A DNA stretch of 64,000 nucleotides from Lytechinus pictus (Eukaryota): NCBI RefSeq assembly GCF_037042905.1, contig NC_087250.1:14820001-14884000 (forward strand), given 5' to 3'. A program made the translations under genes and the position numbers. This document shows, piece by piece, positions 7,101 to 49,036 of the stretch (the first letter of the stretch is position 1; each line of letters opens with the position of its first letter). The notes under the pieces are model-generated. The model was not told the origin of the DNA, searched no databases, and saw only the letters and a list, made by a program, of their open reading frames with translations.

Positions 7101-10100
7101 AATGCTCCATGTTTGATGTTTGTCACTGTAACTTCAGTTGGCCTCTGTTCTTCGATCGCAACATCCTCATTGATCTCCATCTTCTCCTCCTCCTCTCCTT
7201 CCTTTGTTTGCTGTCTTTCATCTATTCTCTTCTCCTCCTCTCTCTTCAGAACTTCTTTGCACTAAAAGAGAGACAAACTCAAATTAATTAATCAAATTTT
7301 CTAACTCATTTCCATTTTTACCTTCACTGATTTTCCTCAGTTTTCAATATATTTGCATCCAACAGGTTTACTGTAATACTGCCATACTTTGGCAAAAGGA
7401 AGCAAGTTACAAAAGTATCATTTGTTGTAAATGAGCAATGTGCGTTCGCCATTTACATAGGCATCAATGCAATTTAACAACATATTTTCTTTAATATCTT
7501 TCCATAGAACGATCATTTCTTCCCCAAATTTTGCCTCAACGTGCAACATACAAAGGGTGTTTCAGAAACAACAATAACTCAAATTTGACTGATGTGTCAC
7601 TTGCTTTCTTTTGCCGAAGTTGGGCAGTTAATTGAGACCATAATGTTCCTATTTACTAAACTTTGTTAGTCAAAGATAACATTCAAGGGATGTTGCAAGA
7701 AACTCTTAATCAATTGTAAAGCTAAGTTTAGGTTCATTGTAAGCAAGTTTGACACTGATTGATATTTTACTTGCGGTCTAAAGTACCAACTTATTTTCAA
7801 CATTTGGAATCGATATATCAATTAAAATATTTTTGCACAATTGCATCCAGAAGGCTTATTCTAATGAGACTATCATTTCCTATTTTACACTATAATTTAT
7901 TCACTAAACTACAGTGTAGTGTTAGATTTTAGTCAATTAAGTGAAAGATAACTGATAACAAAGGGATATTGTTTTCAGCAGGTCAAATCATTCTAGCAAT
8001 TTCCTCTTTTGTGATTGAAATATGATTCTACCACCATTCCCCTCAGTAAAGTACACATCTTATCCTGTTTTCAACAGTTAAAATCGATCTCGCAATTTCC
8101 TCTTTTGTGATTGAAATATGATTCTACCACCATTCCCCTCGGTAAAGTACACATCTTATCCTGTTTTCAACAGTTAGCATCGATCTAGCAATTTCCCTTT
8201 TTGTGATTGAAATATGATTATTCAAACATTCCCCTCGGTAAAGTTCACGTCTTACCCTCTCAAATGCATCTTCACCTTCCGCCGTTTTTCCGATCTGAAG
8301 ATAATACCGAGCCTGCAGCCAGTGTACTGTAGGGGGAAACAACATGATGATAATCTGCTTGTTGCCGGTACCAAAGGCCACAGATCTGGCAACATGTACT
8401 GAATCAATGTGACTTCCTGGAGGTACATCATATCATCTTCATGGTACTCTAACACCCACTGATGGTTGCACAAAAGGTTCCCCATTCACTACACGTGATA
8501 CACTTAAATGATCAATGGTACCATCTTGCCAGTATCAAAGCTTACAGGTCTGGCAACATGAATTAAATCAAAGAGAGTTATTATTATTCACTACACTTTA
8601 CATAATTAAATGAACAATGGTAAACACTGTACCTCTTGCTGGTACCACAGGCCACAGGTCTGGCAACATGTACTGCATCAAGGTGAGTTCCTGGAGGTAC
8701 ATCATATCATCTTCATGGTGCTCTCCCCATTTGAAGGTGCAAGTTGTGGTATTTGCACCAAGCCTGCATATAGGAGAGAGTACATGTATTTCTGTAATGA
8801 CTAAGAATGCTCATATCTGATTGAACTGCATCGGTATGGTCTCATGAATATTTCAATATCAAAACTTAAAGACCATTCATACCGTATCTTAGTTTGACTG
8901 ACATGCAATTCGGTGGATTCACAATACGGTGCGCCACCATCTATTGGTTGCAGCGAACAGGCCAATTGTCTAACCTCGCAGGCGACATCGCGCGCATGCA
9001 GCGCACAGTGCTAGTTTACTGTAATGTGACTGTGATGCTTCAAAAATTAAAACCATATGGCACAAATTTACCAAACGGTCTAAATTTCTCGCAAAAATAT
9101 GCGGGCAAATTTCCCTCCCACCTCCTGGACCCTAGTAAATAGCATATCCGGTTGAGCTGCGTCGGCCCGCGCTGAATAATTGCATGCATACACTTTAGTA
9201 CTAGCATGTGCAACTTTTTCCCCATGAGGCATTGCGAATTTTAGCCCGTCCGCTGCAACCAATAGATGGCGCCCCGTATTGTGAATCCAACGAACCGCTG
9301 ATGCTGCGGGAAATATTGCCATGAGTCTCTACAACCAGACCCTCATAGGGATGAAATCATTTAAATGGTTCCATGACATTTGCTCCGCTGTGAATTCCAC
9401 ACACTAATCGAATGACCAACTTCTTCTTCCAGAGTAAGTGCTACTTCAATGTGATGAAGATAAACGCACTGGTTGTGTGTGTACAGTGTATGTGTGGAAC
9501 TTTTCACATACTGTTATTTCATAATAAATTAAGCTCTTGTTCTTGTAGTGCATGTGCGAATATATACATGTGTAAGTAAAAACATTCTTGTTTGTGGTGT
9601 TTACTTCAGCATCCCACTCAAGAAGGCCTTGAAGGCATCAACAGAGGGGTAATTACTGGTTCCTGTTGGAGGTTGTTCCAGTCCTTGCAGGTTCTTGGGA
9701 AGAAGAAGCATGGGTTTAACACAATACCCTACTAATATACCCTAACCAACATAAAACCCTATTGCAACCCTAACCCTAATCCTAATCTTGCACAAAATAA
9801 AGCCCGGAGCTATTGTTGCCAGAGCAAATGTTGTGTCCCCATTTTGATATGCTGTTCCACCATTTCATGCCCTTTTGTTGACATAATTAAAAAGGAAAAT
9901 TGCACGAAGGTCTAATTTGTGTGTCTAGAGCATCATGGGTGTGGTGGCTCGCCTTGTAAAGAAGGTCGTGTGTTTGAATCCCACCACAGCCTAGCATCCA
10001 CTGTCAAAGCGTCAATCCACATTTTGCCACTCGTCACCCAGGTGTTAAATGGGTACCTGGTATGGTGTGAAAGCCTATGAAGTACATGTATGCTTAGAAT

Positions 10101-22100: not shown

Positions 22101-25100
22101 AGTTCATTTTATCAGCTCATTTTAGTTTCAAATCATTCATTACTGTCAGAAAATATGAAGTAATGTTTTTCTCTTCTTCACTGTTAAAGCATGGGAAAGA
22201 GAAAAACAAACATTCTAAACACACTTTGATATTTTCAGCTTCCCATCACTTTGGCACTAGGTTAGACCATGGTCTAAATTAAACGTAAAAGAAAGTAGTT
22301 GCAGCAAACAATTATTTTGTGAGCAAGTCTTTTAAATCAAGGTCAAAAGTCAAAATATTATCATACATCTAGATCTGGTACATTAGTGTAAACTTATATT
22401 TGTAAAATCATGAAATCCTAGCTCAAAATTGATAATTCTGATGTTCACTATCACAGATAAGCCTATGTGGGACAGTGTATTAATATTGCTTCGAAAATAC
22501 CCAACATTTGATGGAATTCCGAGCTTATTTTGCTCATTTCTCAGCAATTACACTATTTCTTCCAGAGCTATTTGGCACATGTTTTTTTTATTTGTACATG
22601 GGAACACTTTGGTCATTTTATAGGATTCTGTTTGAACTCATTGAGATCGTTACCACAACTGGCATTTATCTTTAAACCAGATTTAAGAATATGGCTATAA
22701 AGTTTAAATATGCAATCTTCATACCTTTTTTCGCTTATCTTTGGGTACTTCATGGTAAAAGACATCATCATCGCTATGAAAAAAAAAGAGGAAACAAATT
22801 CTGCATGAAAATTTGAGCTACTGTACTATTCTCTTTTAATAGCTAGCCTGGCTCACACCGTAGCATTCTGGGCATTCAGCTGCATATTGCCCGGACGCTG
22901 ACAATCGCAGCCTCTGGTTTTAAAATCATGGTTAGATGTTATCACACCATCATACATACAGATTGAGACAATTTTGTTCTAAACATAGAAATCAAATGCT
23001 GTAAAATACGGAATCTCCAATGAAAATCTCAGATAAACGTCGCTAACACAGATAAGTATACATTAGGTCGGTGACACAAAGCTTAGCAATCATTGCACAA
23101 CATCTTTTTACAATTTATTGCATTGACTTCAATGTACAATTAATCATGAAAATCAAGCGTACGATTAATCACTAACCTTTGTGTTAAGGGACCATGATCA
23201 TGTAAGACGCATCATCCCAAATGGATTTATAAACAAAATTGCTCAGAGTAGATGATACATTAAGATGCTGATGTACTGTACAATCCAACCAGGGCCCCAA
23301 AGATATCGAGTGATCCAATCAACCTTAAATATATGGAAATCCATCAATGTCATGATTTTTTCTATATGAAACTTGCAAAATGTCCTTTGTAAGCAAGGAA
23401 AAGCAAACTGAATGTCCAAGAAAATGATAAATGAATGAATAAACATATCTAGAAAATATTTTGAAAAAAACATGCATTTTAGATGTTGACGTTGCTGGCT
23501 TTCCATAGTTGTGGTTGATGGGATCAATCGCAATTCTTTGTGAGACATGGCCCAGACCTAACAAAGCATTTACGTTACTTCGAACAGCATGGTGTGACTT
23601 TAGCACATGGCTGGCTTTAAAACCCCAAATTCACAAAGTTGGTTTTAAAAACCATCGGTTGAACCCATGGTTTATGCAGATTTCCTGTATAAATTACGCT
23701 TATTTACCCTGTATATTAGAACAAGTGGAACGCCTCTGGCAGTCTCGCCTGCATTACGCAATTTAATATAGCAGCAGTGCTAACTTTGAAAACTACTATA
23801 AAATAATCATTCACAAAAACACCATTCATATAATGACATAATACCACGTTCATTGACCATAGATGACATTTGAATGGTGACGTAAGACTTGTCAAATACA
23901 CCCATGTCCACATTTCATTCACTCTATCCAAAAACTTTCAAAGTTATGATGGCAATTCAACAATTACCCCAACATGGCCTAAGTTTATTGACCTTAACTG
24001 ACCTTTGACCCTGGTTTTGTGACCTGATTTGATTTTGATGTTGACGCCGCCGTCGGAAAAGCGGTGCCTATAGTCTCGCTCTGCTATGCAGGCGAGACAA
24101 AAATGTCCAATGCTTATGCGAACTTTTGTCAGAGTGCGCCAAATTGGCGCCTGTGGCCATGATTAATTACGCTATTTTATTCATGAGTCTGACACTGTTT
24201 TTAATTAATGAGTTCACTCTTCAAACAGTGGGCTCATGAATAAAATAGCGTACTTAACCATGGCAACAAGGGTCAATTTGGCGCACCCTGACAAAAGTGT
24301 GCATCAGCATTGGACATATTTTTAATATACGCGGTAGAGACGTAATTTATACAGTAAATCTGCATAAACCATGGATTCAACTGGTCAAAAGGTTTCTTAC
24401 CAGTGTTTAAACAGATCTAAGCAATCTCTTCTGAGACAAGGCTGCTCGGAGTAAATCTGATCTCTAAGGGCTAAACCTACATAAACAAAACAACAAAGAA
24501 AAATAAGCACCATCAGTGAGCCGTTAAAACCTCATATCTAAACATCTACAGTTCTTTGATAGTACAGCTTAGGATCAATTTTATACTTCAGACATATGAA
24601 GCAACCTTCTTTTAGTAAGAACGAGTTATCTGCAGAAATTATGAGACTGCTTTAAGGGTGACACGACATATGCTCCTGCGACATTTGCTCAAATTCAAAT
24701 ATATCAGAGGGCATAGGGTTTACTTAGAGTTAGGATTGTACTAGGGTTCTTGATGTCATGGAACTGTTTTAAGACAATCAACTTTGCCACTATTGCCTCA
24801 TTTCTAAAATACAATCTTGACAGACAGTCCTCAGACTTTGAACACCTTGATGTATCTAAAAGCCCACCAACATCAATAATATTGCATTTCTTATTCCATG
24901 TATTGTTGTTAAAAGTTCACTTATTTATTTATTTTGTTTTATTTATACAGGGTAGCCTCATCAGTAGTCATGTACTGTTTTCAAGGGGGCCCTGTAAACA
25001 AATATTTACAATATAACAGACAAGCAAATTACGTAAGGAAAAAAACAAACAGAACATGCAAAATAATCAGAAGAGAATACAAGGAAAAAAGATGATGGTA

Positions 25101-34100: not shown

Positions 34101-36969
34101 AGGACCCAAGATTTATGACGGTGAAAAGAATATAGAAAGGAATTCCTATTGTAAACTTGTACACAACAATCTTCTAATGCTTTTTTGTTACATCAGCAAG
34201 TACATGTACAGCATCTATGACGAAGGTCTGATTATAAAGCTTGTAGCCTCGTATGTGAAAGCCTCCTAAACATCTATAGGTAAAATTTCATGACTGTGAA
34301 AAAAAAATTGTGTCCTTAATCTTTTAATAGTACACTGGAAAACATCTTTGTTTAATAACAATGTTTGGTCATTAGTTATTCGATGAAACCAAAATTGGTA
34401 GTCAATCGTCCCACATGGGTGATTGTATTAAAAGAGAACAATTATGCCTCATCAAAATGTTGACTAACCTTTTCAAGATTTCGAAGCAATTTCTTTTCCC
34501 TCCCTCGCTGTCTTTTCTGAGATACGACGTCATCTTCCTCGTCATCATCGGCATCGTCGTCCCCGTCATCATCATCATCACGCTTCTCATCTGATGAAGA
34601 GGAGGAAGATGATGATGAATCGCTGATGATTCTATTTCTTTTGGGTGCTCTATGCACTTGCAGATGGGTTGCTGTAGAACGACAGATAGTAAAGCACAAA
34701 TGAATTGACTTGAATTACTGAACATCAAATGCATGCCTGAATTCTAAATGTCTTTTCACAACAGACGAAAATTCATCAAAATTTGGGTCAAAGCACGAAG
34801 ATGTTACGAGTTATTCTGATAATCAGACCTAGTTTTAACCCTACACTAAACAAGTAATTTTGTAAACAAGTCTATGGAATACTCGGTTTTATCTTTTTCG
34901 TTCAATATGGCTGATAAAAATAAGGTACATAGATATCTATTTTTATGCTCCTTTTATTAGCCTTCCTGAAGACATTATTAAATGTTTAACTTTGAAACAG
35001 GAAGTGTTGAGCAACTTTTAACAAAAAGGTTTTTTTTTTTTTTTTTTTGGGGGGGGGGGTCATTTTAATAATAAAAACTAAAAGTAGGTGTTGGAGTCTG
35101 GGGCGACAATCTACATTTTGCTTCCAACATGAACGCAAAGACCAAAACCCCACAAGGACCAGGGTCCCATAACACAAAGGTTAGCGATTGATTGTATATT
35201 GTAGTCAAAGGAATCAATCGTAGAAAGATGTTCTAGATCATCGCTAAGCTTTGTGTTATGGGCGCCAGCACTAACACCGAACTTGATATACCTGGGGGCC
35301 ATTTCATAAAGCTGTTTGTAAGTTAAGAGCGACTATAAGAATGACTGGTGATCCTTTCTCACACGCTAAACCATTGCCAATGAACATTTTGGTGTATATA
35401 TACCATTTACCAGAAGAAAGGATCACCAGTCGTTCTTAAAGTCACTCTTAACTTTCTGAAACACCCACCTGTATCGCCTTCATCATCTTGTAGGTGAGCT
35501 GTGGCTTCCAGCAATCTTTGTTTTGCAGCCTCCTAAAAAATAACAAAGAACACAACAAAAAGAAACAGATCAACAAACAGGGCCCAGTTTCATAAATTCA
35601 ATAAAACATTTCCTAAAATTCAATTAAATCTATTTTCTACATATTTAGTAAAAAACATACAATATCAGTACAATCAAAATGCATTCATAGATAATTACAA
35701 TACAAACATAAATAGTTTATATCACATAGAAAAGACATAAGAAAATCAAAATGTAGAGGGGATTGACAAAGGCCATATTGACTTATCAAGGACAATCCCC
35801 AATAAAAAAAATAAATGGATTACATAAATTATATTAAAAAAAGAAAGATACTTGACCTAAAAAAAAACGGACAGAGCAAAAAATGGAATACGCAAAACGG
35901 GGAGGGAGAGACAAAAAATAAAATAATTCAAAAAAAATCTGTTCAACTTGGGCCAAAATTTGACTTCAAAAAAAGTAAACAAAAACACATTGAAATTGTA
36001 GGATGATTATTTTTCAATTATTTCCTTTAACTTGTGCTTTCTTTAGATGTTTTACATTTCTGTTCAGTCTAGACCTGAGTCCATTTGCATTTCTTTTCAG
36101 CACTGCCCTTGCAGTCTGAACTTTGGTCATTTATTATATTCAGTTTTCATTCATTCATTCTACTCTGAATGCCTTGGTCCTCTGATTCTCTTTTATCATC
36201 TTCATTCCTTCTCTATTCATGTGTTCCACTCATTCCATCCCTCACCTGACTCCTTAGTTTCTAATGCCATTATTACATAATCACCAGACATCTTTGTCAT
36301 CTTCATCTCATTCCTTATTGGTTTATCTTACGAATTTGGTTCTTACATTTTACATGCAGTTCGATCCTTCCATTTACAGTTTGATTGGTTGTTATTTCTA
36401 ATTCAAATAAATTATGTAAATTGTATATCATTGAGTTTTACTGAGGCAAAGTAGCCCAGAGATTAAATCAGTGCACGACCAAACTTCTTCGACTTCAGTT
36501 CAGTTTATTTGCGTCTCTTCCTAGTTTCACTTATTTTCCCTTTGTGGATGATTTGAGTTTGCTGCCTTGAACTTACATCATTTCTACCCTGAACTTGACT
36601 TATAATTTTACACCTTACAAAATCATAATAAATGGGCCTGGTTCATAACTGTTTGGAACCAATCAAAATCAAGGATACCATGAAAGTTACCATTTATTTT
36701 ATGCAACGAACAGGGGCCCCTGGCCAATTGAACTGACTCCAACATTTTGGGCTAGTAGGTACCGGTAGGCCTATATGGCCAGATCTCGGACCCCTACAAA
36801 CTCCCATCAAATTTGGGTTTATGTCCCCCCCCCCCCCCCCCCCGATTCTTCAACAAGGAAAATATTGAGTTTGACATGATTGAATTCATGAAAAGTGTTT
36901 GGTATTACGATCCACTACTATACTTACATAGCTATGACCAGTCTCTTTCAGTGTCCGGATAATAGGCAT
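958..36969 (-). CDS. CABIN1: Calcineurin-binding protein cabin-1 (HIRA complex TPR scaffold), 30 coding exons, 3'-incomplete at window start
   Basis: Manually spliced exons keep one open frame (4088 nt) with matching phases. Peptides follow vertebrate CABIN1 in order: [122 protein letters not shown]. Confidence 0.95.
1470..1775 (-). repeat. Three decayed tandem copies of the 3' end of CABIN1 exon 1803-2010
   Basis: Repeated gaacagtgtttc...caggatcatgga...ag|gtaag blocks, period about 100-115 bp. Confidence 0.85.
1803..2010 (-). CDS. CABIN1: CABIN1 exon [15 protein letters not shown]...[24 protein letters not shown]
   Basis: Matches SWCCNSDGALLRFY...LEQCFYCLYSFPSKK; 208 nt. Confidence 0.95.
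2336..2673 (+). mobile_element. tRNA-derived SINE with L2-like tail
   Basis: Degenerate A box and GTTCGAATC B box, body shared with 9936-10420 and 32700-33034, tail taaagcgcttagagac...taagcgctata...(tat)n. Confidence 0.8.
2764..2901 (-). CDS. CABIN1: CABIN1 exon EEDHL...[19 protein letters not shown]
   Basis: Matches PMLPSSLMLLNTAHEYLGR; 138 nt. Confidence 0.94.
2956..3267. mobile_element. MITE family A (ggcccgtattctga TIR)
   Basis: Long TIRs; sister copies at 27145-27449 and 62752-63062. Confidence 0.85.
3536..4020 (-). repeat. About 190-bp tandem repeat spanning the 3' half and donor of CABIN1 exon 3925-4101
   Basis: Near-identical units at about 3536, 3723 and 3913, each with gtaagt donor. 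Confidence 0.9.
3925..4101 (-). CDS. CABIN1: CABIN1 exon ...[13 protein letters not shown]...[14 protein letters not shown]
   Basis: Matches LTNNLIQVIDCSM...SSVLPWIILHRII; 177 nt. Confidence 0.92.
4312..4549 (-). mobile_element. tRNA-derived SINE (second family)
   Basis: Same body as 20198-20407 and 33565-33772 (ggtaccca...cctgggttgagtgcagcacaatg). Confidence 0.75.
4599..4723 (-). CDS. CABIN1: CABIN1 exon ESIFCC...[15 protein letters not shown]
   Basis: cag/gtaagt, phase 0 to 2; aligns with EEWVATVTQLL region. Confidence 0.87.
4830..5350. repeat. Imperfect (GAT/GGT)n microsatellite with embedded gattatcagagtgcagtggt units
   Basis: Directly visible trinucleotide tract. Confidence 0.9.
5372..5615 (+). 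mobile_element. SINE-like element with degenerate tRNA head
   Basis: gtgtggtccattggt...ctcataa...gagtttaaatccc head followed by non-tRNA body. Confidence 0.5.
5786..6000 (-). CDS. CABIN1: CABIN1 exon ...[15 protein letters not shown]...VVELLRPTL...[10 protein letters not shown]...
   Basis: Matches KSLERCQSLEEIQRL...VVHLLRPTL...PERPAQLLLL; 215 nt. Confidence 0.94.
7090..7261 (-). CDS. CABIN1: CABIN1 exon [10 protein letters not shown]...[10 protein letters not shown]
   Basis: Open frame, tag/gtagag, phase 0 to 1. Confidence 0.87.
7975..8255. repeat. About 85-bp tandem repeat abutting the donor of exon 8256-8326
   Basis: Three-plus copies of tagcaatttcctcttttgtgattgaaatatgatt...cattcccctcggtaaagt. 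Confidence 0.85.
8256..8326 (-). CDS. CABIN1: CABIN1 exon [24 protein letters not shown]
   Basis: Matches VYWLKARFLALQG; 71 nt. Confidence 0.92.
8633..8763 (-). CDS. CABIN1: CABIN1 exon LGANTT...[12 protein letters not shown]...WPVVPAR
   Basis: cag/gtacag boundaries, phase 2 to 1 as required. Confidence 0.85.
8895..9300. mobile_element. TIR element (ggtggattcacaatac...gtattgtgaatcca), sister copy 16535-16956
   Basis: Inverted subterminal repeats and a second similar copy in the window. Confidence 0.7.
9420..9710 (-). mobile_element. CR1-type LINE 3' fragment
   Basis: Minus strand reads [13 protein letters not shown] (CR1 ORF2 C-terminal motif) and ends in (GAA)n. Confidence 0.7.
9936..10420 (+). 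mobile_element. SINE with a second SINE nested inside
   Basis: Body matches 2336-2673, interrupted at about 10100-10300 by agagctcagtcggtagag...ggttcaattccc head. Confidence 0.6.
10558..11116. mobile_element. Two adjacent MITE family B copies (gggccccgtcttacaaagagtt TIR)
   Basis: TIRs at 10558/10828 and 10844/11114; more copies near 6290-6495, 12606-12880, 23290-23553 and a minimal hairpin at 17962-18028. Confidence 0.8.
11172..11297 (-). CDS. CABIN1: CABIN1 exon ...[20 protein letters not shown]...
   Basis: Matches [20 protein letters not shown]; 126 nt. Confidence 0.9.
11345..11770 (-). repeat. Three decayed copies of the 3' part of CABIN1 exon 11844-12069
   Basis: Repeated cagactgatatgctttctc...aacacagctg...ctaccagtctt blocks. 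Confidence 0.8.
11844..12069 (-). CDS. CABIN1: CABIN1 exon ...ESDDVHSLL...[12 protein letters not shown]...RWPDGLA...SLPELF
   Basis: Matches EKQDVHEFLL...NGGILELMMRYL...RWPPGLA; 226 nt. Confidence 0.94.
12606..12880. mobile_element. MITE family B copy
   Basis: TIR gggccccgtcttaca...tgtaagacgggcccc. Confidence 0.8.
13125..13299 (-). CDS. CABIN1: CABIN1 exon [27 protein letters not shown]...
   Basis: Matches [24 protein letters not shown]; gtgagt donor gives the required phase 1. Confidence 0.9.
13300..13640 (-). repeat. Three decayed copies of the acceptor and 5' part of CABIN1 exon 13125-13299
   Basis: Period about 110 bp; ggagtacctcagtatagtttatt...ttacctg. Confidence 0.85.
14184..14296 (-). 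CDS. CABIN1: CABIN1 exon ...RGHKRKK...GKRRSAR
   Basis: Matches KGVKRKK...AKRRSAR; 113 nt. Confidence 0.92.
14563..14755 (-). CDS. CABIN1: CABIN1 low-complexity exon (MERGQEPP...KLQHD)
   Basis: Open frame, aag/gtgagt, phase 0 to 1. Confidence 0.8.
15109..15590. mobile_element. piggyBac-type MITE
   Basis: TTAA on both sides; TIR ccctatctaggccgggg. Confidence 0.85.
16097..16280. mobile_element. PIF/Harbinger-like MITE family C
   Basis: ggggccgtttcataaa...ttatgaaacacccac, TSD CTG on both sides; sister of 35295-35468. Confidence 0.85.
16535..16956. mobile_element. TIR element, same family as 8895-9300
   Basis: aattcggtggattcacaatac...atattgtgaatccaccaaatt inverted ends. Confidence 0.7.
16992..17200 (-). 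CDS. CABIN1: CABIN1 low-complexity exon (SEEYVDVE...PSATE)
   Basis: Open frame, tag/gtaagg, phase 1 to 0. Confidence 0.8.
17283..17749. mobile_element. Non-autonomous TIR element (cagagctgccaac)
   Basis: 13-bp perfect TIR; related ends at 28910-29265; TSD not clean. Confidence 0.65.
18430..18657 (-). CDS. CABIN1: CABIN1 low-complexity exon (PKDVSQ...EESKQK)
   Basis: Open frame, cag/gtgcgg boundaries, phase 1 to 1. Confidence 0.8.
19935..19983 (-). CDS. CABIN1: CABIN1 exon [16 protein letters not shown]
   Basis: Matches SLGKRIDLSDY; 49 nt. Confidence 0.88.
20198..20407 (-). mobile_element. tRNA-derived SINE
   Basis: Minus-strand head with gtggtctagtg and ttcgattccc; body shared with 4312-4549. 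Confidence 0.75.
21046..21112 (-). CDS. CABIN1: CABIN1 exon [22 protein letters not shown]
   Basis: Matches WKCLGESLLAMYNHLT; 67 nt. Confidence 0.92.
21270..21422. repeat. (AGT/AGC)n microsatellite
   Basis: Directly visible. Confidence 0.9.
21449..21549 (-). CDS. CABIN1: CABIN1 exon [15 protein letters not shown]...
   Basis: Matches IVDEALGLRKKRQAL; 101 nt. Confidence 0.92.
22282..22672. mobile_element. Kolobok-like non-autonomous element; inverted sister at about 33109-33472
   Basis: TTAA-flanked; end accacaactggcatttatct is the reverse complement of agataaatgctagttgtggt at 33110. Confidence 0.6.
22725..22773 (-). CDS. CABIN1: CABIN1 exon [16 protein letters not shown]
   Basis: 49 nt, phase 2 to 0, fills the gap between flanking exons; AG/GT. 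Confidence 0.85.
24401..24476 (-). CDS. CABIN1: CABIN1 exon [25 protein letters not shown]
   Basis: Matches GLVLKEKIFEEQPCLRKD; 76 nt. Confidence 0.93.
25493..25710 (+). mobile_element. 5'-truncated R4/Dong-like non-LTR retrotransposon in (AAT)n
   Basis: Encodes [21 protein letters not shown]; (AAT)n on both flanks. Confidence 0.75.
26163..26216 (-). CDS. CABIN1: CABIN1 exon [17 protein letters not shown] (GC donor)
   Basis: Matches CLYFICKALEKDCRYSK; donor AG|GCAAGT. Confidence 0.9.
26411..26985. mobile_element. Kolobok-like MITE
   Basis: TTAA TSD; TIR aggagaatgaaac; internal inverted repeats. Confidence 0.85.
27145..27449. mobile_element. MITE family A copy
   Basis: TIRs and 3-bp TSD TAT. 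Confidence 0.85.
27677..27870 (+). mobile_element. Second 5'-truncated R4/Dong-like copy in (AAT)n
   Basis: Encodes [22 protein letters not shown]; (AAT)n on both flanks. Confidence 0.75.
28268..28448 (-). CDS. CABIN1: CABIN1 TPR exon [16 protein letters not shown]...HWPCLD...INDYV
   Basis: Strong match to the CABIN1 TPR region; 181 nt. Confidence 0.95.
29735..29872 (-). CDS. CABIN1: CABIN1 exon VKVSPD...[10 protein letters not shown]...AMENYLE
   Basis: Matches LKYSTYKNLA...AMEFYLE; 138 nt. Confidence 0.93.
29873..30770 (-). repeat. Tandem repeat (period about 180-210 bp) built from the acceptor and 5' end of CABIN1 exon 29735-29872
   Basis: Repeated ctctcatcc...aaacctt..acct and tggggcaatggtgaaaaatattgactgtcc blocks. 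Confidence 0.85.
30862..31203. mobile_element. piggyBac-type MITE
   Basis: TTAA flanks, ccctaa...ttaggg ends, internal gttgaatcaa/ttgattcaac inverted motif. Confidence 0.75.
31498..31611 (-). CDS. CABIN1: CABIN1 exon [15 protein letters not shown]...RFLSK
   Basis: Matches EAEAFALYHKALDLQ; 114 nt, AG/GT. Confidence 0.93.
32520..32603 (-). CDS. CABIN1: CABIN1 exon SMISALNES...TKEAQ
   Basis: Matches IRIAALN...TKEAQ; AG/GT boundaries, 84 nt. Confidence 0.93.
32700..33034 (-). mobile_element. tRNA-derived SINE, same family as 2336-2673
   Basis: Minus-strand ggaagcgtcgtggtgtagtggt...gttcgaatccc head and shared body. Confidence 0.85.
33565..33772 (-). mobile_element. tRNA-derived SINE
   Basis: ggttcgaatccc B box on minus; body shared with 4312-4549. 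Confidence 0.75.
33815..33931 (-). CDS. CABIN1: CABIN1 exon EMKRKR...KPKSAM; final ATG aligns with the vertebrate start Met
   Basis: cag acceptor, gtatgt donor, 117 nt phase 0. Confidence 0.75.
34469..34671 (-). CDS. CABIN1: CABIN1 N-terminal extension exon (acidic/Ser-rich, ...[13 protein letters not shown])
   Basis: ctacag acceptor, gttagt donor, 203 nt phase 1 to 0, open frame. Confidence 0.7.
35295..35468. mobile_element. MITE family C inserted exactly at a CABIN1 splice donor
   Basis: TSD CTG at 35292-35294 and 35469-35471; TIR ggggccatttca...tgaaacacccac. Confidence 0.88.
35469..35532 (-). CDS. CABIN1: CABIN1 N-terminal extension exon ([21 protein letters not shown])
   Basis: ttttttag acceptor, 64 nt phase 0 to 1, donor gtgggt. 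Confidence 0.65.
35995..36590. repeat. Left arm of about 600-bp diverged inverted repeat
   Basis: Colinear reverse complement of 40330-40945. Confidence 0.85.
36928..36969 (-). CDS. CABIN1: CABIN1 putative first coding exon ([14 protein letters not shown]); whole exon 36928-36991
   Basis: Acceptor ttctgcag, donor gtaagt, in-frame upstream TGA, ATG with A at -3, phase 0 into next exon; no recognised homology. Confidence 0.55.
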
Positions 36970-37082
36970 CTTTGTTCGTTCGCATATTCACCTGCAGAAG
37001 GGAAAATATATCATAAAGAATAATAGTATTATAAACATAAATCTACATTCTAGATTAATGTCGTCTCCTTTTGACTTTTGTC

Positions 37083-39030
37083 ATGTTCCCAGAACGTGTT
37101 TGGAACTTTTTCAAAGACCAAGCACTCGCGATTAGAACTTGTGGAGGATATTTAGTGGACAGTGTTCTTGCACCATTGGCATAGCTGATCTCGGAGAAGT
37201 CATCGATTGAATATAATGGAATGTCAACAAAGGCCAACATCTACTTGCTCTTCGTTGGACCTCCCTCAACTGGGAAATCGCAGGCCACACAAGTAGGAAC
37301 AACTGACCCTCTACAGGCGATAGATACTGTACGAAACAACACGATTCCCCTTGCCATCGAAAAGTCCACTTCCGGAGGACTGTTTTGCAGATTGGCCGAA
37401 GGGGATGGAATGATGGTCTCCGGCGAGATACACGACATTCTTCTGAAAATGGCAAAGAATGACGGAGAGAGCGCAAGTGGGGATATTGCAACTTTGTGCT
37501 ACTTGTTTAGTGGTGAAAAAGTATCGACGACATACATGTACGCTACCCAAAACAAAAAGGAAATAGAGGCTGGGCGTGCTTTCTCCATTGTAGGTGCAAC
37601 CCAACAAGGACCAGCCGCTCATCTCCTCACAGCTCTTGACAATGGTTAACGGGATGATTGAGAAACTATTGAGCCATTTCCAAGATTGCTTGCGAACCTT
37701 TCCCAAGGATACGCGAGAAGCACACCATCGTCTACTTGAATCAGGATCGCTTAGTATCACGAAGTGTGCTATAAGTCGTCGAAAACCGACACGAAAAGGG
37801 TGTAAAATATTCCTTTTCAGATTGCAAGAAAAACTAAACAAAATGAGCAGTACATCAAGGCGATAAACCAAACCATTGTAGAGGGAACTTTTCCTCCTCA
37901 GACATTCGACTTGCCGCACCCATTCAGGTTCTCAAGTCCATAGTAGAAGACCTGCTGGTGGGACGTCCACCAAATGCACCAAACCAACTAATCGGACTGG
38001 AGAGTCTAGTGGCAGCCCAAAAGCTGGTTAAATATGCAGAAGGGCAGAAAGAGACTTTCTTAACCGTAAGTATATCAATCAACTGGTACATGGATATTGT
38101 TTAACACAAAAAATATCAATAATACCAACGTGTTATATTGCTAATTACTAGGCTTTTAGGTATATATTTGAATATTATTATATTAGAAAATACAATTCAC
38201 TTTATGAATGTGATGATCTTCTCTGAACAGAACAAATTTAATAATTGTCTATTACTCATGTGTGTATTTTGATTATACATGTAGAACATAAAGATGACAT
38301 TTTATTAACTTTTCCAAATGTTGATATTGAGTCAATAATTATGTGTGTAATTTAATGATTGCAGAAAAACATGTGACTTTATATCAATTTATGTTGTATC
38401 GATTAATGTTACAGGAACTTTGAGATATTACGACCAAAGTGACCACTCCGGTCAAGGATCAGCCAACACCAACCAGTGTGGCTGCTGCCAATGTTAGATC
38501 ACCAGGAAACGTGCCGATATATCGCTCCTTCAAGTCTACCTGCATTAAGCCCATGAGGAGCGTTAGCAGTGTGGAATTTCCAAGTGCTCTCACGGATCTC
38601 AAAGATGTTGGGGAGGTAACATCGATCCGCAGTGGAGGAAACAGCAGGCCCTCGGTGGTATTTTGTTAAAAAAGACCCAGATATCATCGACTGGGACACC
38701 TTCACTATTGTTAGTAGAGAGGAATACCCCATAGCCTGCATAAAGAATTTGCCAAGCTGTGAACACCAAAAACATGAGGAATGCGCTTATTAGCAGTGTG
38801 GAGTTTTCAAGAGCTCCCACTAATTTCAAAGATGTTGGGGCGGTAACTTAGATCCGCAGTGTAGGAAACAGCAGTTTCTCAGTGGTATTTGTTAAAAAAG
38901 ATCCTCATATCATCGACTGGGACACCTTCACTAAAGTAGAGAAGCTTACATCGCAGCCTACATAAAATTTGCCAAGCTGTGTTACCAAAAACATGAGGAA
39001 TGTGCTTATCCAAAGGAGAAATGAGATTGT
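37083..39030 (+). pseudogene. Decayed P-loop NTPase gene, DUF3987/YfjI-like, two exons (intron 38066-38414)
   Basis: NIYLLFVGPPSTGKS Walker A at 37257-37280, hydrophobic strand plus GEIHD, SIVGATQ motif; in-frame TAG at 37182, frameshift near 37647, internal about 220-bp duplication in exon 2. Confidence 0.7.
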
Positions 39031-41308: not shown

Positions 41309-43156
41309 CAAGGCTCCACATTAACTTTTTTTGGTGGTGGCCCGTTTGGGCCACCAAAACCATCAAATAATTTTTTTTGGTGGCCCGATATTAAAGTTTG
41401 GTGGCCCGAAAAATATAAAGAAAAACATTAAAAATGAATAAAACAAACTTCTGAAATATTAATTCTGCAGCCACTACCACTAAGTTACTTTCACTTTATA
41501 CTTCTTGTATGTAAACCTTGTTTGCTGTTATTTACTTTGCTAATTGATAATTGTTTCTATCGTTGTAAAAATGAAATGATTGAAAGTGAATAAATGAATT
41601 GTATTGTTCGCAGGTTGTGTGGACTTTTTTTTAAATCTCTGTATAGAGATAATGGTAAAGTAAATAAATAGTGCATAGCAAACTCAGATAGATGTACAAA
41701 ACAATGTTTTTTCCTTCCTTCCTCTTTGAATCCTAAAACCTAGATTATGCATGCCCCAAATCCAGTTTATTTCTCTTTTGCAGCATATTATAGAAGGAGA
41801 AAATCACAGAAAAATATGCTGCAAAATTAGAACAATGCATAAAAGGGGGAAACAAACGAAAATAATTTTCAAAAAGTATATAACAAAAAGAAAACAAAAT
41901 AATAAAAGAAATTAGTGAAATAAAACAAAAGAAAGAAAATGAAGAAAGAAAAAAACAAAGAACAGGGAAAAAAGGAAAAAAATTAGAGAGAAAAAAGAAA
42001 AGAAAATTAAAGAAAAATTAATAAAACAAGGTTAATATAAAAATGGGGAAAAGGGGAAAATTAAGAAGCCATTAGGCCCTACATATATTTTTAACAGCTG
42101 TGGCAACAGTCTATTCTGACTGGAATATAATTAAAAGCCAAGCAAATAATTTTCACTTACCTTTTGGGAATGGCACATTTCTACTTTTATATCCTTTAGT
42201 TTGTATTATTTTATTTTCAGTAGAACCATATTTTTTAATCAGGCATATTCAATGGGAAGGGGTATAAATGGTTTAACCACTGTCAAAAAAAAATGAAAGA
42301 AAAAAAAAGAAAACGGCAAAAACTATATCTGGAAAAAGTGTGAGAAAAGTCCTTCCCTATATTTGCCAAAATGTTGGAAAAAAATCACATTTCATATCAA
42401 TGAAATGCCTTCCCAAAGTATTTACTTTCTCAAGAGTGGTTTAAGAAGTCATTTATAAACAAGAAAGAAATAAACTGTCTGTCTGTTTAAGGCTAGAAAA
42501 TACACAGCTTCGAAAGAAACCAAGTATCAACATACATACAAATGCACACGTGGGACTGTGATGTACTTGCCTATGTGTTTTTATGTGTATTAATTCATGT
42601 GGAAATCAGTCTTTTTGAGTTAAAAGAGAGGTCATAATTCCTCTTCTTAATACTTGCAAATAATCAGGGTACACCAGATTTTCGTAATATAGACTGTAGA
42701 ATTGCATTTCATTGGTGTAAAAGGTGACTTTGACTTAGATTTTCAAAGTTCTGTGGAAGATTTCTCAGCAGCAACATTTTTTATCGCAGCTCCCTGAGTC
42801 TGAATGGGCTGAGCTAGATCTAGAGCACAGCTGTATGCAGTGGCTTCATGCAAAGCTCACGCCAGCCGGCCGGCGCGGCTGGCTGGATAATAGCTACTGT
42901 ATGCTATAGCTGTAGGCCTAATATGCAAACTTTGTGTGTGTGTATTTGTGTGTAGATCAACAAAAAGGGCGCATGACGGGCTTGCAATTTGAGCTGTAGA
43001 AAGTTGATAAATGCGTGCAAAATTGGGAGAAAAATTGCGCTACTTTGAAAATTATTGGTTTCCCGATTCGGGCCACCAAAACTTAACATTTTATCAATAA
43101 TGGTTGCCCGAGGTGAATTTTTGGTGGCCCCGGGCCACCGCTAATGTCGAGCCTTG
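41309..43156. mobile_element. P-element-like non-autonomous transposon
   Basis: TIR caaggctc(c/g)acatta, 7-bp TSD ccttaca, subterminal ggtggccc motifs. Confidence 0.8.
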
Positions 43157-43359
43157 CCTTACATTTTGTACTAAAAATTGATGACACTTCGCTTGTAATT
43201 TTTTCCAAAAGACTTTCTAAAATTGATCGTCCGGACACACAACCTGTCCGGACACACAACAACTGGGTATACCGTATATTCCAACCAGAAAATAAAGATC
43301 GTGTCTCAATACGAGAGCAAAATATCATAAAATAAAAAATTTCTTCTCCTTTTCTTCTA

Positions 43360-43690
43360 AACCATCTTCTCAATCCTCTTCTTAGACAGGAATAACCGTC
43401 GTTTCTGGGGATTTATTCAACAATTTCTGACATTTTACTGTAATCCCCATGAGCCAACGCAGTTCAGCGGAACAACCAAAATACAGAGACTGAAGCTTTT
43501 GGTCTATCCTCTTCTTTGACTTTCGTTCTTTATCTTCCTCTTCTCCTCGACCTCATGCAATACATCATGTTGCCGTTGGCTCGCCTTGCCAGCGCAGGGG
43601 CCGCGCCGGAGATCAAATCTTCACAATCGTAGGTCGCTCGTACTCGAAGGTGACCAACACTCAACAGCAAGAAATGTGATTCTGCAGTTC
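43360..43690 (-). promoter_or_regulatory. Candidate CABIN1 promoter/non-coding first exon
   Basis: Non-repetitive, locally CpG-rich patch upstream of the first coding exon, which itself has a splice acceptor; no strong donor identified. Confidence 0.3.
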
Positions 43691-44799
43691 AGCCCCGGGG
43701 GGGCCACTTACATTGACGAGTGGATACCATGCGCGACCAAAAAAACACGTAAAAAGGATGTCTTTTTCACGATAGGGCACGTTACGTACGTAACGTGATA
43801 AGGGTGTCAAAAACACAAAAATAATGAAAAAAGGGTATCTATTTCGCTAGGAAAATTACGTGTTTAGGGTCGAATTCGCGGGGATGATAAAACAAAATTA
43901 AAATGTTTTATAAAGGATGTCCTTTTTGCCCCAACACTTCGTCTTTAGAGTCCAATTTGCGCGAGGTGTAGAAGGTGGGGTCGTACTAAACCAAATAAGG
44001 TAAAGCCGACGACCGAAGGACCCGTAACAATAAATAAAACATTCGGCTTAACTGCAGAATACCCCGACACTGCTCACTACCCAATCGTTGGTCAGCCAAC
44101 ACAACGATGTCAAGACCTATAGCTATATACTAATTCAATGGTATATAGCCTAGATATATCCATACTATTATATACGTACATGCATTACTGGTACTACTAC
44201 TACTACTATACTACGTACGTACGTACGTATGACGGTACGTACGAGCAATGCATCCAGGCCATACGTAATGACCTTTGCCCTTTGACTACTACTAGAGCTA
44301 TAATTAAACATCGTTGGGTGCGCAACGACCCACGTTGTGACGGTACGGACGGTGCAATATAATATTCAAAACATCGCTAGCCAACGACCAACGATGTGAC
44401 GGTGCCATGTAACATTTAAAACATCGTTGGCTAACCAACGACCCACGATGTGAAGGTGCAATAGTACAAGATTAATACACTCTTTTAAATTACCTACTAC
44501 TACTAGCTATTGCTATACATCGTTGGGTGCGCCGCTAGCCAACGACCAACGATGTGACCGTGCAATGCAACATTCAAAACATCGTTGGCAAGCGTTTCAG
44601 AGTATGGTTTCACAAAACAGTTTAATATATGCATATCCTGGTTAGTGAGGTGATCGATGTCATTCACTCTCTATTTCTTTTGTATTTTTTATACATGAAA
44701 TATTTTCATTTTTTCTTCATTAAAATATGAAATAAAGTTTTAATTCCCATTGAAGGAATTCAATGGGAATTGAATTCAATGGCCGGGAATTGAATTCAA

Positions 44800-44817
44800 T
44801 TAGGGTTAGGGTTAGGG

Positions 44818-44858
<41 letters not shown>

Positions 44859-44884
44859 GGTTAGGGTTAGGGTTAGGGTTAGGG

Positions 44885-44944
<60 letters not shown>

Positions 44945-44979
44945 GGTTAGGGTTAGGGTTAGGGTTAGGGTTAGGGTTA
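44800..44979 (+). repeat. Interstitial telomeric repeat (TTAGGG)29 with three TTTAGGG variants
   Basis: Directly visible. Confidence 0.98.
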
Positions 44980-46600
44980 TATTCACATCGTTGGCATCGC
45001 CGGCAATGTTGGCCTCTACAACAGGCATATTCACATCGTTGGCATCGCCGGCAATGTTGGCCTATGTAAGATACATTCACATCGTTGGCACTGTTGGCAT
45101 CTACTACAGGCACCAACACATCGTTGGCATCGCGGGCGCTGTTGGTATATACATACTAAACATACATTCACATCGTTGGCATCGCCGGCAAAGTTGGCCT
45201 ATACTTACTAAAGATACATTCACATCGTTGGCATCGCCGGCAATGTTGGCCTCTACTACAGGCATATTCACATCGTTGGCATCGCCGGCAATGTTGGCCT
45301 CTACTACAGGCATATTCACATCGTTGGCATCGCCGGCAATGTTGGCCTATGTAAGATACATTCACATCGTTGGCACTGTTGGCATCTACTACAGGCACCA
45401 ACACATCGTTGGCATCGCGGGCGCTGTTGGTATATACATACTAAACATACGTTCACATCGTTGGCATCGCCGGCAAAGTTGGCCTATACTTACTAAAGAT
45501 ACATTCACATCGTTGGCATCGATGGCAAGGTTGGCCTGTACTACAGACACCAACACATCGTTGGCATCCTGGCCGGCGCTGTTGGCCTATACGTACTAAA
45601 GATACATTTACATTGTTGGCATCGTTGGCACTGTTGGCATCTACTACAGGCACCAACACATCGTTGGCATCGCGGGCGCTGTTGGCCTATACATACAAAA
45701 GATACATTCACATCGTTGGCATCGCGGGAAAGGTTGGCCTATACTACAGACACCAACACATCGTTGGCATCCTGGCCGGCGCTGTTGGCCTATACGTACT
45801 AAAGATACATTTACATTGTTGGCATCGTTGGCACTGTTGGCATCTACTACAGGCACCAACACATCGTTGGCATCGCGGGCGCTGTTGGCCTATACCTACT
45901 AAAGATACATTCACATCGTTGGCATCGAGGGCAATGTTAGCCTGTACTCTACAGTACAGACACCAACACATCGTTGGCATCGCGGGCAATGTTGGTCTAC
46001 ATAGGAAACTACAGATATGATCGCATCGTTGGCATCGCGGGCACTGTTGGCATGTACTACAGACACCAACACATCGTTGCCATGGCGGGCAATGTTGGTT
46101 TACATAGGCAACTACAGATATGATCGCATCGTTGGCATCGAGGGCAATGTTGGCCTGTACTACAGACACCAACACATCGTTGGCATCGCGGGCAATGTTG
46201 GTCTACACATACTACGGAAATATACACATCGTTGGCATCGCGGACACTGTTGGTCTACATACTACAGAACACAGATATAGATCGTTGGCATCGAGGGCAG
46301 TGTTGGCCTGTACCGACTACAGACACCAACACACCGCTACCATCGCGGACTGTGTTGGCCTACACGTACTACGAAAATATACACATCGTTGGCATCGCGG
46401 GCAATGTCGGCCTACATACTACAGATGCACACAGATATATATATAGATCGTTGGCATCGCGGGCAGTGTTGGCCTGTACTACGGACACCAACGCACCGCT
46501 AGCATCGCGGACTGTGTTGGCCTACACGTACTACGAAAATATACACATCGTTGGCATCGCGGACACTGTTGGTCTACATACTAATCGCGCGCGCTCGCAT
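44980..46600. repeat. 40-55-bp minisatellite with higher-order structure, about 33 units
   Basis: Conserved core cacatcgttggcatcgc.ggca.tgttggcct with variable linkers. Confidence 0.95.
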
Positions 46601-47084
46601 CGTTAGCGTTACAGTGCAGTCTGAACACTTAGAATCTATTCAAAAAATACTTGTAAGTTGTAAATCATTCAATTATTTATTATAGCTGATTTTCTGATTT
46701 GATAGCTTAAGTACATCGTTGTGCGTTGGCTCTCCAACGATAAGGTAACGCAGTGTCCGGGTATTCTGCAGTTGTTCCAAACATTCCTGTACTTGTTTAG
46801 GGGTTCATTTCAGGGAACATTTTCCAAGAGTATCGTTTTGTTACCAATACTTGTTAAGGGTAGGGTTTCACACGCCAATACTTGTTAAGGGGCGCATTTT
46901 CAGAATATGGGAATTACGTGTTTAGGGTGCTTTTCGAGACCCCATGGTCGCGCATGGTATCCACTCGTGAATGGAAGTGGCCCCCCCGGGAGTTCAGCCT
47001 TAATTTTTCCTCCTTTTTCACAACATACACATGATCTTCACAATCCATCAGCATCACCACATCATGACCGGAAATCCCGAACAG

Positions 47085-47531
47085 CAGTAGAGGCGCACGG
47101 CCAATATTGGAGACTGTCTCCAATGTGGGAGATTATCTCCAATATCAGAGACTTTTGTAAAGAATTTGAGTATCCAATTTCAGAGACAGTCTCCAGTTTT
47201 GGAGTCCAATTTCCTTTGTTTACATTTGCTGTAAAAGGATTACCTTGGCGGTAAATAAAAATGTGATAAGCAGATTCCTCATGAAAAATTACCCCTTTTC
47301 ACCGTCTACTTTAAATATTCACCGTCTACTTTTGTTTTGATAAGGATTTTTGTTGTCAATCACACACAAAACAAATGGGCTTCTGACCTCAGTGAGACAA
47401 AATTTTGGGTGGAAAAAATCATGCTTTTGTTGGTGTTGTTTCTTTTGTCCTCTTGCAAAGCAAGTCTCCAATGTGGGAGATTGTCTCCCCTATTGGAGAG
47501 AGTCTCCCATATTGGCCGTGCGCCTCTACTG
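47085..47531. mobile_element. MITE with 5-bp TSD
   Basis: TIR cagtagaggcgcacggccaatat; TSD aacag on both sides. Confidence 0.88.
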
Positions 47532-48252
47532 AACAGCATTAGTCTAAAACTTTAGATTTTGACAATGAATGTCAATCACCACTGATCACTCCAAAGTCCA
47601 AATAAATGACAACATTCCCAATCAAAATTATTATTCTTTTTTTATATTTTGTCAATTTCTCAAATTAAACATGATTATTGATAAACTTGTGTCGTTGTGA
47701 AGTTGTGTAACATACCCATACCAGTACCACCACTAGACCCTATACACCTTCTTTCAAAACAGAAAATAAAGGGGAAATTTGGCTTACCCATCCACAAAGT
47801 TGACAAGATGGAATTCAAATTGGCCCCGGCGTCCTGCCTGATCGCGGATCGCGCTGTTGCCTGGCCTGGGAATTCCCATTCATTCATTCACTATGCACGT
47901 TACCAGCACGAACAAAGCAGTCATAGTCATAGACATAGATCATCATTTGGCATTTCAGGATACCGTACGGGATACCGGCAGTACCGTCGTTCACAAAGGA
48001 TTCGACCATTATCATCTCGACCCCAAGTACGGGGAACTCGGCATACGTGAACGTGACATCAGTATGACGATAAAGCGAGCGTCGAATTTGGATCACCTTC
48101 CCGGATCACCTTGTCGACAAAATAAAAAAAAGGAATTAACGTAAAACGATTTTACCTTTAAAAATTCAAAGATACTCTTTCGTGTGCTATGCAGATGTGA
48201 TTCCACTTTTTCCCTTACGTTGATGCACATGGGCCTCACTTGTACGAGGCAC

Positions 48253-48637
48253 CACTATTACGTACGGGGGGCAGTCTGCCCCCCTGACGAGCCACTACAA
48301 CCACTGAACTAGAGATTTTTTAGTTCAGTGGCCACAACCCATGGAAAGGACGTATCCCTGCCCCCCTGACGAGCTTGAAGACCTTTATTGCCCCCCCTGA
48401 CGAGCTTGAAGACTTTTTTTTTTTTTTTTTTTGCTTGCTTAATTGTCAATTTTTTTTCTGATATGAAATCCTTTATTTGTGATTGAAGACCTTTTTTTTT
48501 TTGCTTGTCAATTTTTTTTTCTGTTACGAAATCCTTTATTTGTGATTGAAGACTTTTTTTTTTGCTTGTCAAATTTTTTGGCGGACGGTTTTGCCCCCGT
48601 CCCCTGTGGAAAATCCTAGGTACGCCGTACGCCACTG
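48253..48637 (-). mobile_element. hAT-like MITE family D (cagtggcgtacc), inverted copy without TSD
   Basis: Reverse complement of 58830-59135; flanks do not match. Confidence 0.8.
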
Positions 48638-48640
48638 GCA

Positions 48641-49036
48641 CAGATCATTGGTCCTGCCCAGTGGCGTACCTAGGATTTTCCAGGATTTTTGTCAGGGGGG
48701 GCAAAAAGGTCTTTCAAGCTCGTCAGGGGGGCAGGGATACATGCATGGGTGGTGGCTCGTCAGGGGGGGGGGCAGACTACCCCTCTGCCCCCCCCCCCCC
48801 GTAGGTACGCTAGTGGTCCTGCCTATCTCTACAATCCGTTGAATCGCATTTTCACAGTCATGGGCTTCTACAACTCTTGTGCAAACCCAATCATCTACAC
48901 CATGAGCAATGCCGAATTTAGACTTGCCGCCAAAAGCGTTCTGACGCGTAAAGGTAGCGATAAAATATCGGCTTTCGGAATCAAATCAGAAACAGACAAT
49001 GCCGATACTGCAACGAGTTCAGTGCACGATGCTTAA
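48641..49036 (+). pseudogene. Class A GPCR C-terminal fragment (ECL3-TM7-tail), paralog of 61086-62318
   Basis: Removing the MITE restores QIIGPAYLYNPLNRIFTVMGFYNSCANPIIY...; TM1-6 not found upstream. Confidence 0.8.
48659..48815 (+). mobile_element. hAT-like MITE family D inserted in GPCR fragment
   Basis: 8-bp TSD gtcctgcc. Confidence 0.9.

Follow-up and report, generated by a model that had tools for sequence, protein, structure and literature searches.

A telomere-type tract and a self-derived minisatellite in a Merlin-like transposon nested within a second transposon of Lytechinus pictus

Introduction

How does a run of telomere repeats come to lie deep inside a chromosome arm, and could a transposon have carried it there? 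In the cited parts of the literature, short interstitial telomere-type sequences (ITSs) of mammals are traced to insertion during double-strand-break repair (PMC7215372, PMC6410037, PMC2246262), the transposition of mobile elements is named only as one way in which large ITS blocks might arise (PMC6410037), and the abundance of ITSs on metazoan chromosome arms is called a mystery by a nematode review (PMC9071541). Tandem repeats borne by MITEs and other DNA transposons include Xstir, Ensat1, oyster HindIII and the GTCY microsatellite MITEs (PMC6947457), and Merlin elements have been proposed to spread tandem repeats as proto-satellites (PMC8101967, cited part). Both associations, internal tandem repeats in Merlin elements and such repeats carried by MITEs, are already known.

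Here we analysed a 64-kb stretch of Lytechinus pictus DNA (the window), in which a telomere-type tract and a minisatellite lie within one transposon that is itself inserted into another (Table 1). The assembled piece extends at least 7.2 Mb before the window and 10.4 Mb beyond it, so the tract is truly interstitial.

Table 1. Coordinates of the nested elements, their internal features and the CABIN1-like start exon, as positions in the window.
Feature	Position	Strand	Evidence
First coding exon of CABIN1-like gene; ATG 36969, acceptor 22 nt upstream	36928..36991	-	protein matches, splice signals
Left copy of outer 8-bp TSD AGTTCAGC	43686..43693		exact repeat
Outer non-autonomous element; TIRs 43694-43739 and 46945-46990	43694..46990		inverted arms, TSD, run depth
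Left copy of inner 8-bp TSD AAACATTC	44037..44044		exact repeat; single copy at the empty site (X9, X10)
Left TIR of inner element; GG start; contains ATCGTTGG/CAACGATG motif pair	44045..44110	+	TIR alignment
Subterminal palindromic repeats, CATCGTTGG / CCAACGA motif; direct copies at 44309, 44422, 44518, 44580	44300..44592	+	motif search, folding
Fragment of another, much more abundant repeat (~110 bp, approximate limits)	44621..44735		depth spike in X1, X9, X10, X23; loose end 44656
Hairpin / palindrome cluster, 16-bp GAATT-type units, abutting the tract	44740..44801		folding; indel variant in X1 and X9
Interstitial telomere-type tract, G-rich strand on +	44800..44976	+	unit count
Minisatellite, 32 units (39-62 bp), CATCGTTGGCA motif; higher-order repeats of 285, 203 and ~162 bp	44986..46593	+	unit split, motif count
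Right TIR of inner element; CC end	46713..46778	-	TIR alignment
Right copy of inner TSD AAACATTC	46779..46786		exact repeat
Right copy of outer TSD AGTTCAGC	46991..46998		exact repeat

Two nested elements with true target-site duplications

The inner element spans 44045–46778 (2,734 bp), starts with GG and ends with CC. Its terminal inverted repeats (TIRs) are imperfect and 66 bp long; 54 of the 64 aligned columns are identical, a further 4 columns hold gaps, and 24 of the first 28 bases match; the left end reads GGCTT and the right end, in reverse complement, GGAAC. Across the window, this is the only GG...CC pair that combines an exact 8- or 9-bp target-site duplication (TSD) with a TIR match of at least 16/28. 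The outer element, with CCCGGG ends and 46-bp arms that are 96% complementary, measures 555 bp once the insert is removed. The odds of meeting either 8-mer TSD, inner or outer, at a given place are ~1–3 in 100,000.

The outer element belongs to a high-copy family, with several dispersed copies in different surroundings; the sequence flanking position 43694 takes many forms, and depth is high in each of the four sequencing runs compared. Contigs of two of these runs, X9 (1 contig) and X10 (63 contigs), depart from the window at 44034, continue with a single AAACATTC and run on into the sequence from 46787 onward. Because sister copies of the outer element hold a single AAACATTC at this empty site, the inner TSD is a real duplication, and the locus consists of nested non-autonomous TIR elements with true TSDs. 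A previous sequence-only reading had described a 2734-bp GG...CC element with TIRs of about 65 bp and an 8-bp TSD, lacking a transposase and sitting in a CCCGGG-ended element with an 8-bp TSD of its own. This description stands in each of its parts, and the search for empty sites that it had called for gave the junctions above, with the one AAACATTC joined straight to the right arm. Open reading frames within the inner element are array or microsatellite frames with no transposase frame among them, two of its frames scanned against Pfam matched no family, and a search of 43000–48500 against Rfam at E 0.1 gave no match.

A minisatellite grown from the element's own end motif

The units of the minisatellite have a mean pairwise identity of 0.73 (32 units by our own split). 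The heptamer ATCGTTG, on either strand, occurs 40 times inside the inner element (14.6 per kb) versus 3 times in the other 61 kb of the window (0.05 per kb). Each TIR and the palindromes of the left arm contain it, nearly every array unit opens with it, and the unit can be aligned to the final left-arm repeat. Since the motif is common to the TIRs, the left arm and the array units, the array is home-grown: it was built from the TIR/subterminal motif of the element itself and is not captured foreign cargo. The 1.6-kb minisatellite that had been listed as cargo is thus present, but cargo is the wrong word for it. Subterminal repeats can serve as transposase-binding sites in other DNA transposons, and the ATCGTTG-bearing subterminal motif is probably such a site as well.

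The higher-order repeats are 96–99% alike near the tract and ~83% alike at the far end, and the best-match identity per unit is 0.99 beside the tract and has dropped to 0.89 where the array ends (Spearman -0.71; the p of 6e-6 is overstated as the units are not independent). This gradient is most simply read as a series of local duplications, of which the latest took place next to the hairpin and the G-rich tract. The locus also shows how the end motif of an element can give rise to a minisatellite. The MITE-borne repeats in the cited part of PMC6947457 are likewise minisatellites that a non-autonomous element carries and that grew out of a part of its sequence, whereas the array here comes together with a hairpin and a telomere tract, and its homogeneity rises toward both.

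Hairpin, telomere tract and copies in other sequencing runs

The hairpin cluster (44730–44802) folds at -18.2 kcal/mol (z -4.3), and one of 200 shuffles was as good. In the palindromic arm, 44500–44600 reached a z of -3.1 and 44300–44445 a z of -1.6, which is not significant. The tract holds 29 units, 26 reading TTAGGG and three TTTAGGG, the latter identical to one another. The subterminal palindromic motifs, hairpin and 29-unit tract had all been named from the letters alone and are found again here, with the three variant units as the one amendment.

Of 24 listed sequencing runs, four (X1, X9, X10 and X23) were compared with the window over 43165–44823, with 44792–44823 masked and the tract letters left out; holes in depth may stem from the filter and so prove little. 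No RNA run was among the listed holders in the run search. The left arm of the inner element was found in X1 and X9, which come from two studies, and was absent from X10. Both arms show the same three differences from the window in ~660 bp: an 8-bp insertion at 44322, one substitution at 44600 and an indel in the hairpin cluster. Their contigs end 25 and 27 letters beyond the GAATTCAAT that precedes the tract. The X9 records that run on unlike the window amount to 0.14 of 36, that is five, and as five other records already fill this count, the X1 and X9 tails would match the masked TTAGGG. These contig tails, whose own letters were masked, suggest that the tract is also present in the X1 and X9 copies.

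X1 and X9 have no depth over the unique flank at 43557–43668 and almost none over 43277–43332, holes that the filter may cause, which suggests that their copies lie at other loci. As X9 also has no depth over 44061–44172, the copies could be alleles of the same locus rather than transposed sisters. In X9, where contig depth does not equal copy number, the inner-arm contigs have a depth of 7.6–8.6 versus 77–136 for single listed outer-element contigs. Given this low depth relative to the outer element, the inner family looks small and low-copy, hence little dispersed. The proposal that the element disperses interstitial telomeric repeats is therefore upheld for a TSD-flanked mobile insertion that carries the tract and falls short for substantial dispersal, with the low X9 depth and the absence from X10. 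As a separate observation, 43557–43668 has no depth in any of the four runs, and this flank may belong to a rare or polymorphic larger insertion.

Ends and duplication fit the Merlin type

Elements outside the Merlin superfamily can also have GG ends and 8-bp TSDs. Merlin is placed with the IS1016 group of IS1595 (Feschotte 2004, as summarised in PMC8101967). Merlin elements are defined by terminal GG, TIRs of 24–462 bp and TSDs of 8–9 bp, and imperfect TIRs and internal tandem repeats have been reported for them (Lopes et al. 2021, PMC8101967, cited part). The inner element has 5'-GG at both ends, TIRs of ~66 bp and an exact 8-bp duplication that is a single copy at the empty site; it also shares the imperfect TIRs and the internal tandem repeats, and differs in having no transposase and no sequence match to the examined records of that source. 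From its ends and TSD, the inner element fits the Merlin type, and the Merlin/IS1016-type assignment made earlier agrees with the published definition.

A transposase partner sharing the TIRs was sought by TIR pattern scans of viral contigs and genome contigs, which gave 0 matches; patterns for the array unit and for a second GG-ended family of the window (see below) likewise had 0 matches in viral contigs. Two metagenome matches to the TIR were set aside as chance or uninformative: one in bacterial DNA, and another of 21–22 bp in eukaryote-like DNA that lacks the GG end, a TTAGGG array and the motif. Six motifs from the TIRs or the array were all absent from the examined parts of the PMC8101967 supplements.

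TTAGGG in other GG-ended elements

In the S2 Appendix of PMC8101967, of which the first ~400 letters per record were covered, so that counts are minimum values and include neither the far ends nor the TSDs of the Ptychodera elements, TTAGGGTTAGGG occurs at least 36 times, and the 30 of these 36 places that were viewed all stand in one Ptychodera flava family context. Several of the sites directly follow a long hairpin after a GGCA(C/T)C start, and the records that start further out run from the GG start through a long hairpin to a TTAGGG pair. Of the seven distinct records with a listed DDE_Tnp_IS1595 open reading frame, the six examined all begin with TTAGGGTTAGGG, which lies ~0.5 kb upstream of the frame in five records and 0.85 kb upstream in one with a shorter frame. 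Its position on the sense strand is direct for the three plus-strand records and deduced for the three reverse-complemented ones. A long CCCTAA run in the Ptychodera record LD349245.1 lies outside the element's GG start and was hence excluded from the count. These appendix records support TTAGGG beside a hairpin as a trait of the family as a whole, at least in one Merlin family that has a transposase. The layout is common to the P. flava family and the inner element while the sequence is not, and the seed has 2 units there versus 29 here. In the parts of the paper considered, the text carries no remark on the Ptychodera hairpin with (TTAGGG)2, and the main text has 0 occurrences of 'telomer'. 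Its table lists Merlin-1_Aplcal (Repbase) with a 6-bp repeat of 39.5 copies, the unit not being given.

Within the window, a second GG-ended family is represented by two decayed copies, at 24657–24765 (TSD 7/8) and 9367–9839 (TSD 7/9), with GG-type ends (GGTGACAC... and GGTTCCAT...) that are unlike in their first bases. They hold 4 and 7 degenerate TTAGGG-like hexamers against a background of ~0.3 per 100 bp, enrichment p-values being inflated because the family was found by looking for TTAGGG. In both copies, the G-rich strand runs inward from the same end, with the same polarity. This family, which has no known transposase, is suggestive backing for a built-in TTAGGG seed. In the literature covered, with Repbase entries and most subscription papers outside its scope, neither telomeric repeats as part of Merlin elements nor ITSs in sea-urchin transposons were described.

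Origin of the tract

The reading we prefer, at a probability of roughly 55%, is that the element is non-autonomous and of Merlin type, and that a TTAGGG seed was built in beside its hairpin, lengthened by slippage and carried passively. The inner element would be a young, low-copy, cut-and-paste DNA transposon, excised at its GG-ended TIRs by a transposase made elsewhere and pasted into a copy of the abundant 555-bp element, where the insertion and the duplication of 8 bp can be read directly. The telomere tract would most likely have begun as a short TTAGGG seed that was part of the element's build just inside the hairpin, placed as in other GG-ended elements of marine deuterostomes, and replication slippage would have lengthened it. 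The array would have arisen by tandem amplification of the element's own subterminal motif, most recently at the tract end, where the hairpin and the G-rich tract may stall forks. The tract would then ride passively with the element, leaving an ITS at least 7 Mb from either end of the assembled piece.

A rather unlikely alternative is that telomerase or another repair process patched a break at the hairpin, in one step and in an ancestor of the family, so that the tract hitch-hiked and no seed was needed. The tract does begin exactly at the palindrome arm, whose last TT is in register with TTAGGG, and together with the captured fragment of a foreign repeat it interrupts the subterminal repeats, which looks repair-prone; in-register bases also mark horse ITS insertions, with at least one at 31 of 40 loci in the cited part of PMC7215372. 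However, just two (left) and one (right) in-register bases are frequent by chance, the three identical TTTAGGG variants suggest copying inside the tract, and a one-off repair fails to explain why hairpin and TTAGGG recur in dozens of copies of an unrelated Merlin family, as the P. flava records show in the part covered. Like break-repair short ITSs, the tract is a short, nearly perfect TTAGGG run far from the ends, with two in-register bases at one junction. It differs from them in lying inside a mobile element with its own TSD, in having 29 units versus the 2–25 quoted for human short ITSs in the parts cited, and in that no tract-free junction or ancestral site was seen in the compared runs, where the tract letters were masked.

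The remaining alternatives concern how far the tract has travelled, what kind of element carries it and whether the assembly is right. The element could have moved without a long tract or only once, with the copies in other runs being alleles and nothing dispersed. The low inner-arm depth is compatible with one to a few copies, the X1 and X9 arms differ at three places only and display no second flank, and no look-alike was found in the other windows (247 windows of this genome compared); what makes this unlikely is that X1 and X9 hold the inner arm yet lack depth over its flank (holes that may be due to the filter), and that a few RNA reads with 18 differences over 44401–44454 point to diverged relatives elsewhere. 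Distinctly improbable, and partly overlapping the other alternatives, is a Mutator/foldback-type or other TIR element whose subterminal repeats amplify and whose Merlin-like ends are convergent. Foldback-like elements, including sea-urchin TU, typically carry arrays of TIR-derived motifs, and in TU-type elements long arrays mirror each other across the two ends. Like TU, the inner element comes from a sea urchin, has TIRs and repeats a short subterminal motif in tandem, and the pattern scans revealed no partner transposase. In contrast to TU, its array is one-sided and in direct orientation, its longest inverted match is the short TIR, and the 66-bp TIRs, terminal GG and exact 8-bp TSD agree with the Merlin definition. 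Simple repeats are error-prone, and the tract and array lengths rest on the assembly, without a spanning read or contig; still, that telomeric reads were wrongly joined in or that the array length is wrong is very improbable, as two nested TSDs and two TIR pairs close perfectly around tract and array, the left arm as far as the tract junction is present in two independent runs, and the array has structured higher-order repeats.

With a built-in seed as the preferred origin, Merlin-type transposons may account for some of the telomere repeats that lie inside chromosomes. The origin of ITSs is only partly settled, and a TSD-flanked element with 29 units, together with a transposase-bearing family with a conserved seed, offers a concrete and testable route. 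The single locus itself is probably neutral clutter. More tentatively, and with a low probability, TTAGGG boxes by the hairpin could be a working cis part of a Merlin lineage in marine deuterostomes that slippage lengthens, and hence a systematic, telomerase-independent source of ITSs. If the boxes work, they might serve, for example, as a site for host telomere-repeat-binding proteins that drive the transposase promoter or shield the element.

The CABIN1 context

The insertion had been placed just upstream of the likely CABIN1 5' end, a detail that needs correction. CABIN1-like exons on the minus strand match L. pictus cabin-1-like proteins, mostly at 90–100%, and these proteins and two Diadema proteins start with MPIIRT at window position 36969, a start codon that lies 7,076 bp from the inner element. 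Because a polypyrimidine-CAG splice acceptor precedes this ATG, a non-coding exon is probably located further upstream. Among 12 canonical donors between 37 and 52 kb, the one at 47787, 1 kb beyond the element in CpG-rich promoter-like DNA, is a candidate for the end of the first CABIN1 exon, and the inner element may therefore lie in CABIN1 intron 1. The interval from the CABIN1 start to the element is crowded with other insertions, and in this TE-littered 5' region the tract is probably without effect on CABIN1. A first-exon candidate ending ATG|GT at 43363–43365 was rejected, as the related proteins start at 36969; it also abuts a 124-bp insertion, and an RNA run has no depth at 43557–43668, where holes prove little. 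Searches of PDB and Atlas returned generic TPR matches only.

Several minor features were observed around the gene start and the nested pair. At its N terminus, the CABIN1-like protein is lengthened by an acidic/basic extension of ~140 residues in four exons (36969–33815, minus strand), which is common to Diadema, while most other matches are without it and start at an M(I/L)xIAALN motif. Just upstream of the CABIN1 start exon lies a broken DUF3987-like P-loop frame (37185–38050, plus strand; Pfam E 2.3e-5, below cut-off). Toward the nested pair follow a probably hAT-like element of ~1.85 kb (41309–43156), which has inverted ends of the CAAGGCTC/GACATT type and a flank duplication that nearly matches, and the 124-bp insertion (43383–43506), a miniature element of high copy number that ends in TAGAC...GTCTA and is flanked by an exact 9-bp TSD, TCCTCTTCT. 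Just right of the pair is a small element with 70-nt inverted arms (86%) at 47085–47531. The promoter-like, CpG-rich stretch runs over 47780–48130 on the minus strand, with a strong splice donor at 47787. Beyond it, at 48640–49036 on the plus strand, a fragment resembles the last helix and tail of a GPCR (NPIIY by eye; no Pfam match) and is split by small elements.
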